The notes under the pieces were generated by a model. It was given only the letters and a program-made list of their open reading frames with translations, made no database searches and was not told where the DNA came from. The translations under genes were made by a program, and so were the position numbers. From Escherichia coli (lineage in GTDB: Bacteria; Pseudomonadota; Gammaproteobacteria; Enterobacterales; Enterobacteriaceae): DNA of 64,000 nucleotides. Location: assembly GCF_003334785.1 (NCBI RefSeq), contig NZ_QOWV01000006.1. One strand, 5' to 3'. Below, piece after piece: positions 4,611 to 40,476 of the stretch (its first letter is position 1; each line of letters starts with the position of its first letter).

Positions 4611-5522
4611 ATGTATCAACGCTGTTTTGATAACGCCAGTGAAACGCTGTTTGTCGCCGGTAAAACGCCACGGCTTTCACGTTTTGCATTTAGCGATGAT
4701 CCAAAATGGGAGTCCGGACATCACGTTCATGACAATGAAACCGAGTTGATTTACGTCAAGAAAGGGGTTGCAAGGTTTACCATCGATTCTTCGTTATATG
4801 TCGCACATGCGGATGACATTGTGGTGATAGAACGCGGCAGGCTGCATGCGGTGGCCTCTGACGTTAACGATCCGGCAACGACGTGTACCTGTGCGCTGTA
4901 CGGCTTTCAGTTTCAGGGGGCTGAGGAAAATCAGCTACTGCAACCGCATTCTTGTCCGGTAATTGCCGCGGGGCAGGGAAAAGAAGTCATAAAAACCTTA
5001 TTTAATGAGCTAAGTGTGATTTTGCCGCAAAGTAAAAATAGCCAAACATCTTCGTTATGGGATGCATTTGCCTATACGTTAGCCATTCTTTACTACGAAA
5101 ATTTTAAAAATGCTTATCGTTCGGAGCAGGGGTATATTAAAAAAGATGTTCTGATAAAAGATATTCTTTTCTATCTGAATAATAATTATCGCGAAAAAAT
5201 CACTTTAGAACAGTTATCGAAAAAATTTCGTGCCAGCGTCAGTTATATTTGCCATGAATTTACCAAAGAGTATCGTATTTCCCCTATTAACTATGTTATT
5301 CAACGGCGTATGACGGAAGCAAAATGGTCACTCACTAATACTGAATTATCACAGGCAGAGATCTCCTGGCGTGTGGGTTATGAAAATGTCGATCACTTTG
5401 CCAAACTGTTTTTGCGCCATGTCGGTTGTTCGCCCAGCGATTACCGTAGACAATTTAAAAACTGTTTTGCGGAACAAGAAATCCTATCTGAATTTCCTCA
5501 ACCGGTAAGTCTTGTTGGATAA
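4611..5522 (+). CDS. ydiP: AraC-family transcriptional regulator
   Basis: ORF track 303 aa; C-terminal AraC-type HTH region; divergent from ydiQRST with a 315-bp shared intergenic region. Confidence 0.9.
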   Translation: MYQRCFDNASETLFVAGKTPRLSRFAFSDDPKWESGHHVHDNETELIYVKKGVARFTIDSSLYVAHADDIVVIERGRLHAVASDVNDPATTCTCALYGFQFQGAEENQLLQPHSCPVIAAGQGKEVIKTLFNELSVILPQSKNSQTSSLWDAFAYTLAILYYENFKNAYRSEQGYIKKDVLIKDILFYLNNNYREKITLEQLSKKFRASVSYICHEFTKEYRISPINYVIQRRMTEAKWSLTNTELSQAEISWRVGYENVDHFAKLFLRHVGCSPSDYRRQFKNCFAEQEILSEFPQPVSLVG

Positions 5523-10134: not shown

Positions 10135-11400
10135 TTAACCTCTATGCTTAATTGTGTTTAACCGGGTGCAAAATTTACGCTCGCCAAACCGCACATCATT
10201 TTCAGGAATAATGAAAACGCGGTAATAGCGGATAAAAACAATAATTGCGGTAATCAGGGCCAGCAGCGCGAAAGTAAAATCGAGAACAATGATATATTGC
10301 AGGCCGATGTTCGACAGATAACCGGTAATCAGTGGAATAACAAAGTTAGCCAGTCCACCCATCATCATATAAATACTGGTGACTTTGGCTTTGCTTTTGG
10401 GAAAAAACTCTGACATGACCGAAACGCCGAGCTGTAAAATGCCGCCAGCTGCTGAGAAACCGATAACAAAGGCTCCGGCATTGCACACCAGTGGAGAAGG
10501 GTACAGGTAGATAATGGCTGCTGTTATTGTTGCCAGTGCAGAGTTAAATACATTAGCCCAGATGGGCCGGACCATTTTTTTCAGTAGTGCGGCAAAAATA
10601 AAGACACAGACCAACGAGCCCATACTGTAATAAGAGATGGTTTTTAATGCCTCAGCTTCTGACATACCAGCAAAAGCCATCGCATATTTGGGCATCCACA
10701 CCACAATCACATAAAAGGTCGAGAATGCGGCTACACCGAACAGTACCGATGAAACACCTTCCAGCCAGACTAACGGTTTGCTGTTCATTTGCGGTAATTC
10801 ATTAGTTACGCTGGCGTCCACCAACTGGCTGGGGAATTTGCTTTTCAACAGCATCAGCGTGATCAGTACAAATAGAATACCCGGAATAATCAGCCCATAG
10901 CCGTACCAGATATTATTGAGCAACATATAGCTCACCAGCATTGGGTAGAACATTTGCCCAAATGACACCATCGCTTTAACCAGTATGACCGCCGAACCAG
11001 AGGCTTTCGGAAAGCATTCCATGAGCGCGGGGTAGCCACCCGTATCCAGCGCTGAGTTAGCGATACCTACGCACACTGCCAGACCGTAGGCGAGAGTTAA
11101 ATTCGGGCAAGCGGGAATACCAAAGAAGAATAGCAGATACATTATTACTGCCATTAATATCACCGCCCGACGACCAAACTTATCGGAGATCACACCGAAG
11201 AATAAAATACTGATCAATCGCCCCAAACCGATACCGGAAATTAAGTAGGCAATGCCCGCGTTGTCAGTGGAAAACTTTTCCGCCAGAGATGACATATTTT
11301 GGGCAAGCGTAATAACACTAATGCCGTGCAGGAAGTAGCTGAAGTAAATACAAAGAACAGCCAGGATAAATGGCGTGCTGAAAGCCTTATTTTGAGACAT
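10135..11400 (-). CDS. ydiN: MFS-family transporter
   Basis: ORF track 423 aa (GTG at 11406) trimmed to ATG 11400..11398 with AAGGAG 8 nt upstream; polytopic hydrophobic sequence. Confidence 0.85.
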
Positions 11401-19131: not shown

Positions 19132-19245
19132 ATTATTCTTATCGCCCCTTCAAGAGCTAAGCCACTGAGAGTGCCGGAGATAAGCGCCGGATGGGGTAGA
19201 AACCCTTAAGCCTGTGTCGCACAGACTTAAGGGTTTTCTTATTTC
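19132..19245 (+). ncRNA. rydB: Candidate RydB sRNA locus with rho-independent terminator hairpin (exact ends uncertain)
   Basis: Intergenic ydiH-sufA position where rydB lies in E. coli; strong hairpin AACCCTTAAG...CTTAAGGGTT (19201..19235) followed by TTTCTTATTTCT on the + strand. The sequence itself was not matched from memory. Confidence 0.35.
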
Positions 19246-19465
19246 TGAACGCTGCACTTTTTTACCTATCTCTTAAATAGTCATTTTCAATACAACTTTT
19301 TCTTTTTCATCACAGCCTTAATGCTCCTTAGATAATAACCATTATCTAACAATGAGATACCTAATTCTTAGCGTGCCTGTTAACCCACACATCAGGGTCT
19401 ATGCTTATTAAAAGCAGGCAAAAAGCATGTTTTACGGTAAAGCCCCTGCGTTTGCTGGGTTGAAC

Positions 19466-19480
19466 TGATAATCATTATCA
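19466..19480. promoter_or_regulatory. Fur box in the suf operon promoter
   Basis: TGATAATCATTATCA about 46 nt upstream of the sufA ATG; close match to the GATAATGATAATCATTATC Fur consensus. Confidence 0.8.
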
Positions 19481-19525
19481 CTAACATGCTGTTATACGCT
19501 GAAAGCGATGAAGTGAGGTAAATCG

Positions 19526-19894
19526 ATGGACATGCATTCAGGAACCTTTAACCCACAAGATTTCGCCTGGCAAGGCTTAACGCTGACACCCGCAGCGGCG
19601 ATACACATCCGTGAGCTGGTGGCAAAGCAGCCGGGTATGGTCGGCGTGCGCTTAGGCGTGAAGCAAACGGGCTGCGCGGGCTTTGGCTATGTGCTCGACA
19701 GTGTTAGCGAGCCGGACAAAGACGATCTGCTGTTTGAACACGACGGCGCGAAGCTGTTTGTCCCGCTGCAAGCGATGCCGTTTATTGATGGCACGGAAGT
19801 CGATTTCGTTCGTGAAGGACTTAATCAGATATTCAAATTTCACAACCCTAAAGCCCAGAATGAATGTGGCTGTGGCGAAAGCTTTGGGGTATAG
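19526..19894 (+). CDS. sufA: Fe-S cluster A-type carrier
   Basis: ORF track 122 aa; C-terminal CGCGESF motif. Confidence 0.93.
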
Positions 19895-19902
19895 GCGGTA
19901 CT

Positions 19903-39081: not shown

Positions 39082-40476
<1,395 letters not shown>

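Follow-up and report, generated by a model that had tools for sequence, protein, structure and literature searches.

The window analyzed here is a 64,000-nucleotide stretch of Escherichia coli DNA that corresponds to the reverse strand of NC_000913.3 from 1783911 to 1719912, the genome coordinate being equal to 1783912 minus the window coordinate. The local gene order is ydiJ-menI-ydiH-rydB-sufABCDSE, and a 1-kb query around the Fur box in front of sufA finds a match in 5,422 of the 5,426 complete E. coli genomes, the identity to K-12 MG1655 being 100%. The map in Table 1 sets the known and predicted regulator sites of the sufA promoter on window coordinates.

Table 1. Features of the sufA upstream region and the suf operon in window coordinates (an empty strand cell marks a feature listed without strand)
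Feature	Coordinates	Strand	Basis
Intrinsic terminator hairpin and U-tract 3' of rydB	19199..19244	+	RNA fold
Far-upstream OxyR-type region, about -239 to -195	19255..19300		Conserved periodic elements; exact borders inferred
Predicted NsrR-type 11-1-11 site AATAGTCATTTTCAATACAACTT, -218 to -196	19276..19298		NsrR matrix; overlaps OxyR region
IHF core, TAACAATGAGATA in E. coli (7/9 to WATCAANNNNTTR), -146 to -134	19348..19360	+	Cross-genus alignment
IscR type 2 activator site GGTAAAGCCCCTGCGTTTGCTGGGTTGAA, -58 to -30	19436..19464	+	Identical to published sufA site
-35 hexamer TTGAAC of sufA promoter	19460..19465	+	Position relative to mapped start site; TTGAA conserved across genera
Full 19-bp (9-1-9) Fur dimer site ACTGATAATCATTATCACT, -30 to -12	19464..19482		Matrix from 17 non-suf sites
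Fur box core, perfect 7-1-7 inverted repeat, -28 to -14 from sufA start site	19466..19480		Sequence
-10 hexamer TAACAT of sufA promoter	19482..19487	+	7 nt upstream of mapped start site
sufA transcription start site (A), 32-nt 5'UTR	19494	+	Start site list of Kim et al., 2012
Shine-Dalgarno GAGG of sufA	19515..19518	+	7 nt 5' of ATG; invariant across genera
sufABCDSE operon, regulated target, complete	19526..25038	+	ORFs; RefSeq annotation of identical K-12 sequence

The upstream bound of the suf regulatory region is the rydB terminator. The RNA fold of 19144-19250 has an energy of -36.7 kcal/mol (z = -2.5) and consists of a long perfect stem followed by UUUUCUUAUUU. The Rfam match of rydB scores 81.6 bits, and the boundaries of the gene differ by source (RefSeq, 19132-19199; Rfam model, 19144-19204; mapped transcription start site, 19144). 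Given that the strong terminator hairpin with its U-tract ends at 19244, the rydB transcript is perhaps ~100 nt long rather than 68 nt. The fold of the 5'UTR of sufA is unremarkable (z = 0.07). Inside the operon, a weak start site (5 reads) has been mapped within sufS, 328 nt 5' of sufE and at about 24294 in the window (Kim et al., 2012; PMC3415461), which suggests that sufE is partly transcribed independently of the Fur-controlled promoter.

The start site of sufA itself is listed at NC_000913.2 1762442, with a UTR of 32, in the table of start sites of Kim et al. (2012; PMC3415461), and the upstream sequence printed there ends at the A of window position 19494. The numbering used by the Kiley laboratory agrees with this assignment: -26ATA-24 corresponds to 19468-19470, and the IscR-site mutation -50C to the C at 19444. 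With the start site at 19494, the 15-mer that forms the core of the Fur box falls at -28 to -14, that is, between the -35 and -10 hexamers. The spacer between these hexamers is 16 nt long, and the 19-bp Fur site fills it and touches both of them. Each hexamer matches the consensus at 4/6 positions, and a simple promoter scan missed this real promoter, the two hexamers together reaching 8/12 at a scan threshold of 9.

The Fur box in the sufA promoter spacer

The original prediction had placed a near-consensus Fur operator about 46 nt upstream of sufA, at 19466-19480, and had taken it as consistent with iron-responsive control of the operon. The sequence TGATAATCATTATCA lies exactly there on the plus strand and has no second exact match in the window; the figure of 46 nt is correct by subtraction, with 45 nt lying between the box and the sufA ATG at 19526. 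The core reads TGATAAT-C-ATTATCA, the opposite strand differs from it at the centre base only, and this centre, at 19473, is 53 nt from the ATG. When the window was searched with the classical 19-bp Fur consensus GATAATGATAATCATTATC, a single match with at most three mismatches was found, at 19467-19485 on the minus strand, with 0.02 expected; the identity to the consensus is 16/19.

A weight-matrix scan, which had been proposed as a check on the site, was run with a symmetric 9-1-9 log-odds matrix derived from 17 experimentally supported E. coli Fur sites, none of them from suf, because circularity was to be avoided. The training sites are footprinted or gel-shifted sites with coordinates given by Chen et al. 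(2007; PMC2189734); the promoters were fetched from NC_000913.3, and the register of each 19-mer was checked against the distance-to-gene column of that study. At centre 19473 the matrix gives 16.1 bits, which ranks second among the 63,982 positions of the window, and the exact score distribution yields P = 1.2e-6 per position, which corresponds to an expectation of 0.076 matches in 64 kb and of about 5 in the genome. The site thus passes the scan, as it also does in the 24-site model of Chen et al. (2007), where sufA scores 21.3 bits and counts as one of the genome's strong clusters, with its centre 53 nt ahead of the start codon, at window position 19473. The leave-one-out scores of the training sites span 7.7-28.0 bits with a mean of 20.2, so the suf site is within their range; it scores below the mean because its outermost positions are C/G rather than A/T (ACT...ACT vs AAT...ATT).

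Taken together, TGATAATCATTATCA is almost certainly the operator through which Fur acts on the sufABCDSE promoter in E. coli. The reading that the palindrome is kept for a reason unrelated to Fur, such as spacer structure or another regulator with a similar AT-rich palindrome, with the likeness to Fur sites incidental, could draw on the fact that AT-rich palindromes are common in promoters and on the 8 sites within three mismatches of the 15-mer that were observed in the window against 1.8 expected. It is nevertheless highly improbable given that a matrix free of suf sequence ranks the palindrome second in 64 kb, that published ChIP and mutant data contradict it, and that the conservation of the site follows the Fur pattern, as described below.

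The conservation was assessed with a SufA scan of species-representative genomes that yielded 80 loci, spread over about 25 Enterobacteriaceae genera and encoding SufA proteins of 77-98% identity, and with an alignment of 81 distinct enterobacterial upstream sequences, in which identity was measured to the E. coli base. In 80/80 species, the best Fur-matrix match in the 400 bp upstream of sufA reaches at least 13 bits, and in 76/80 it is located 53-56 nt from the sufA ATG; among the four remaining species, three are offset solely by the assignment of the start codon and one by an insertion. Across the 80 species, the Fur box varies at three positions only: arm position 4 is T or G, the base that opens the right arm is A or G, and the centre base changes as well. 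These are the same positions at which the training-set Fur sites vary, which argues against a palindrome that merely resembles a Fur site. The mean identity over the 81 sequences is 0.96 for the Fur 15-mer, 0.99 for the -10 hexamer and 0.58 for the 5'UTR, whereas the stretches between the mapped upstream sites fall to 0.46-0.61. Across genera, the Fur box is the most conserved stretch of the sufA intergenic region. Base-by-base conservation, as seen here, is not usual in a promoter spacer and points to a bound protein and not to promoter constraint alone. Within E. coli, footprinting by conservation gives no information, the 331-bp region showing 97-100% identity over 5,422 genomes; the 41-mer from -41 to -1 is identical in 4,667/5,415 genomes, and two sampled variants differ outside the box.

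The insertion mentioned above is found in Intestinirhabdus alba. With a length of 96 bp, it intervenes between the Fur box and the place of the -10 hexamer, roughly 55-150 nt ahead of sufA. It carries long terminal inverted repeats, TTAGGCTGTGTCCCTTAACCG...CGGTTAGGGAACACAGCC, and looks like a miniature mobile or REP-type element. The Fur site of this species scores 22.6 bits, lies at -151 from the ATG and is separated by the insertion from the rest of the promoter.

As to the number of Fur dimers at suf, an overlapping site 6 bp downstream, with its centre at 19479, scores a weak 1.3 bits, and therefore suf is essentially one strong Fur dimer site. Chen et al. (2007) describe the sufA site as three overlapping sites within 31 bp. 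The number of dimers bound, which we infer, looks more like that of a single-dimer site than of the multi-dimer arrays found at siderophore promoters.

Several other matches to the Fur matrix are present in the window. The top match, AATGATAATAAATATCAGT with 18.0 bits, is the strongest element, at 29180, of a cluster of matches spanning 29136-29229 within the fumD-ydhY spacer, 255 bp ahead of ydhY; this is the 'ydhY -255' cluster of Chen et al. (2007), with no experimental evidence cited there. A 12.1-bit match to the NsrR matrix described below, at 29158-29180, overlaps it. Another Fur-matrix match, TTTAAAAATGCTTATCGTT at 5103-5121 (centre 5112; 15.9 bits), is located inside the ydiP coding sequence, without promoter context. 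Closer to sufA, the A/T-rich arm of the IHF site contains the palindrome TAGATAATAACCATTATCTA at 19330-19349, an 8-4-8 inverted repeat with GATAAT/ATTATC arms. As a candidate second Fur site it was rejected: it scores 8.4 bits, a value expected about 3 times per window, and its conservation does not extend beyond Escherichia. The resemblance to a Fur box is probably incidental.

Known and predicted binding sites of IscR, IHF, OxyR and NsrR

The expectation that IscR and OxyR sites would be found in the same 300-bp region is borne out by a published site for IscR and by a predicted one for OxyR. The known IscR type 2 site of sufA is GGTAAAGCCCCTGCGTTTGCTGGGTTGAA (PMC4055776, Table S4), and an IscR matrix built from five non-suf type 2 sites ranks the same 29-mer first in the window, with 16.4 bits. 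In the 81 aligned sequences, the half-sites are conserved and the centre is variable. The IscR site ends where the Fur 19-mer begins, with an overlap of 1 bp. The same five-site matrix gives two further matches on the minus strand, 19409-19437 (13.1 bits), just upstream of the known site, and 40164-40192 (15.1 bits), which have little meaning alone given the small size of the matrix.

For OxyR, a conserved array of the CTAT-N7-ATAG-N7-CTAT type is present at about 19255-19300, its elements following each other at 11-bp intervals: CTAT (19266), ATAG (19277) and CAAT/CTAT (19288). Three of the four OxyR-type elements are conserved across genera, which supports the predicted OxyR site. The OxyR consensus ATAGnTnnnAnCTAT-N7-ATAGnTnnnAnCTAT, reportedly that of Toledano (1994), is matched at 13/20 positions at 19255-19291; two other places in this region match equally well, and there are 16 such matches in the window, so the consensus alone does not discriminate between them. 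The IHF site could be placed through alignment only: the strict core consensus WATCAANNNNTTR has no match in E. coli, and the perfect core of other genera (e.g., TATCAATGTATTG) aligns with TAACAATGAGATA of E. coli. Footprints by Lee and colleagues in 2004 are said to cover -236 to -197 for OxyR and -156 to -127 for IHF, and the positions found here presumably fall inside them. OxyR has been placed 'far upstream' of suf (PMC8593673), and IHF is described in reviews as bending the DNA between OxyR and the suf promoter (PMC8300815, PMC7229158, PMC8593673).

The NsrR matrix was compiled from 25 non-suf sites, ChIP-supported or predicted, of PMC5320621 (Table 4). It ranks 19276-19298 first in the window, with 17.4 bits, and the position of the best match is kept in 72/80 species. 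This is the site previously predicted for 'ydiC', the old name of sufA, which had no ChIP-seq peak in CFT073 (PMC5320621). A review cites Partridge (2009) for repression of suf by NsrR. The overlap of the predicted NsrR site with the OxyR region suggests that the nitric-oxide and peroxide regulators may share or compete for the same upstream DNA.

An invariant block upstream of the IscR site

Outside all the sites placed for Fur, IscR, IHF, OxyR and NsrR, the alignment contains a 15-bp block, CAGGGTCTATGCTTA, at 19393-19407 (-101 to -87), that is invariant across about 25 enterobacterial genera and is as invariant as the Fur box and the -10 hexamer. This block is the sole point of discovery value in the present analysis. 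We tentatively propose, as a rather doubtful assignment, that it could be the extended -10 of an unannotated sigma-S-type upstream suf promoter or the site of a regulator new to suf. Were it such a promoter, read-through transcription would likewise be subject to the Fur and IscR sites.

The corresponding reading of the Fur box, namely that it also serves as a roadblock to transcripts from an upstream promoter with its -10 in the block at 19398-19408, is a little less probable still. Beyond the invariance of the block, the case for it consists of the match of TCTATGCTTAT/A, 19398-19408, to the sigma-S extended -10 consensus KCTAYRCTTAA (Weber, 2005, as quoted in PMC5650638), at 10/11 positions in E. 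coli and 11/11 in 39/81 sequences, and of ChIP data from Salmonella, in which RpoS but not RpoD was detected upstream of sufABCDSE and RpoS was called an activator (PMC11548764). However, chance alone would give about 7 matches of 10/11 in 128 kb, so the match is not significant, conservation of the -35 region is poor, and the Salmonella RpoS peak at 1,462,167-1,462,216 could equally represent the sigma-S holoenzyme at the known promoter. Furthermore, no start site is reported at this place by Kim et al. (2012; PMC3415461), in a study of glucose M9 cultures only, with no stationary-phase sample described. Genomic SELEX does not list sufA among the RpoS targets, and the peak that it places between sufA and rydB belongs to the RpoH holoenzyme, not to RpoS.

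Three other interpretations of the block were rejected. As a small ORF (ATG at 19401, 20 codons), it has stop positions that vary, and three genera have ATC in place of the ATG. The NsrR matrix has no match over the block, the nearest one being at 19409-19431 with 8.3 bits. As an IscR half-site, the block has the wrong spacing to the nearest CC and no matrix match. Elsewhere in the window, the only 11/11 match to the sigma-S extended -10 is TCTATGCTTAA at 10141-10151 (+); it shares its core with the block upstream of suf and is located at the ydiN/ydiB junction, on the strand opposite to ydiN/ydiB.

Fur repression of suf and comparison with known systems

The iron-responsive Fur control of sufABCDSE that the original prediction had assumed agrees with the literature, which describes Fur repression through this site. 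According to Fur ChIP-seq combined with expression profiling, sufABCDSE belongs to the operons that Fur regulates directly (PMC4676285), and the reporter PsufA(Fur*) of the Kiley laboratory carries the change of -26ATA-24 to TAT, inside the Fur box. It has been described that Fe2+-Fur bars both RNA polymerase and IscR from the suf promoter (PMC7229158), that the binding of Fur and apo-IscR is mutually exclusive (PMC8300815, a review) and that iron loss relieves Fur and permits IscR-dependent suf expression, with OxyR acting far upstream via the IHF bend (PMC8593673). Constitutive expression of suf has been obtained using a fur deletion strain, chosen because Fur blocks the initiation of suf transcription in LB (PMC12533949). 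Fur occupancy, the effects of mutations in the site and the competition with IscR are thus known from the literature, and they agree with the geometry seen here.

On this basis, when iron is sufficient, an Fe2+-Fur dimer would occupy the 7-1-7 repeat, possibly together with a second dimer, weakly positioned, 6 bp downstream. With the repeat filling the 16-bp spacer and reaching both hexamers, bound Fur would sterically exclude the sigma-70 RNA polymerase, and because the Fur site abuts the IscR type 2 site, Fur would also exclude the activator apo-IscR. When iron falls or oxidants inactivate Fur, the Fur site would be vacated; IscR would then bind and recruit the polymerase, and the operon would be transcribed from the A at 19494, with far-upstream OxyR adding peroxide induction through the IHF-induced bend.

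The balance between these two effects could conceivably be tilted toward IscR: Fur at suf might be mainly an anti-activator directed against apo-IscR rather than a direct occluder of the polymerase, and the promoter would be nearly silent without IscR, with or without Fur. This emphasis is consistent with the abutment of the IscR 29-mer (19436-19464) and the Fur 19-mer (19464-19482), with the reported mutual exclusion of the two proteins, with the weakness of the core hexamers, and with the observation that there is almost no suf expression without iscR, IscR being called the major regulator (PMC7229158). However, a box that occupies the entire -35/-10 spacer makes occlusion of the polymerase geometrically unavoidable, and Fur has been described, in the same source, as blocking the access of RNA polymerase as well as that of IscR. 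We therefore consider a mainly anti-activating Fur unlikely, albeit the least unlikely of the alternatives discussed here; occlusion and anti-activation are not exclusive, so the difference is one of emphasis. The preferred interpretation remains a Fur dimer that excludes both the polymerase and apo-IscR.

The suf promoter is a model of signal integration, in which iron is sensed through Fur, Fe-S status through IscR, peroxide through OxyR together with IHF, and nitric oxide presumably through NsrR. The Fur box itself serves here as a positive control: a reading of the raw sequence picked a real operator, and the matrix, the mapped start site and the conservation across genera all agree on it. 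It is the already known, experimentally established element, i.e., a re-observation with nothing new. Fur binding at the sufA promoter of E. coli K-12 was reportedly described by Outten, Djaman and Storz in 2004 and by Lee, Yeo and Roe in 2008. Compared with the known K-12 sufA Fur site (Chen et al., 2007, Table 4; PsufA(Fur*) of Mettert and Kiley, 2014), the element in the window is the same DNA, with no difference.

The box also corresponds exactly to the 7-1-7 minimal Fur unit, TGATAAT-n-ATTATCA, of Baichoo and Helmann (2002), in the form in which that model is presented by Chen et al. (2007; PMC2189734), where such a repeat is stated to suffice for one dimer to bind with high affinity; the model was derived for the Fur protein of Bacillus subtilis and is applied here to the E. 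coli protein. The suf promoter resembles fepA-fes, entC, fhuA, cirA, ryhB and sodA in having a 9-1-9 / 7-1-7 motif over the core promoter and in being repressed by Fe2+-Fur. At classical Fur promoters, two to several strong sites usually follow each other in steps of 6 bp, and Table 3 of Chen et al. (2007; PMC2189734) counts 3-13 overlapping sites in a footprint, whereas suf has one strong unit with a weak neighbour. Furthermore, unlike in the classical promoters, the suf Fur site lies beside an IscR activator site, and its repression therefore includes anti-activation.
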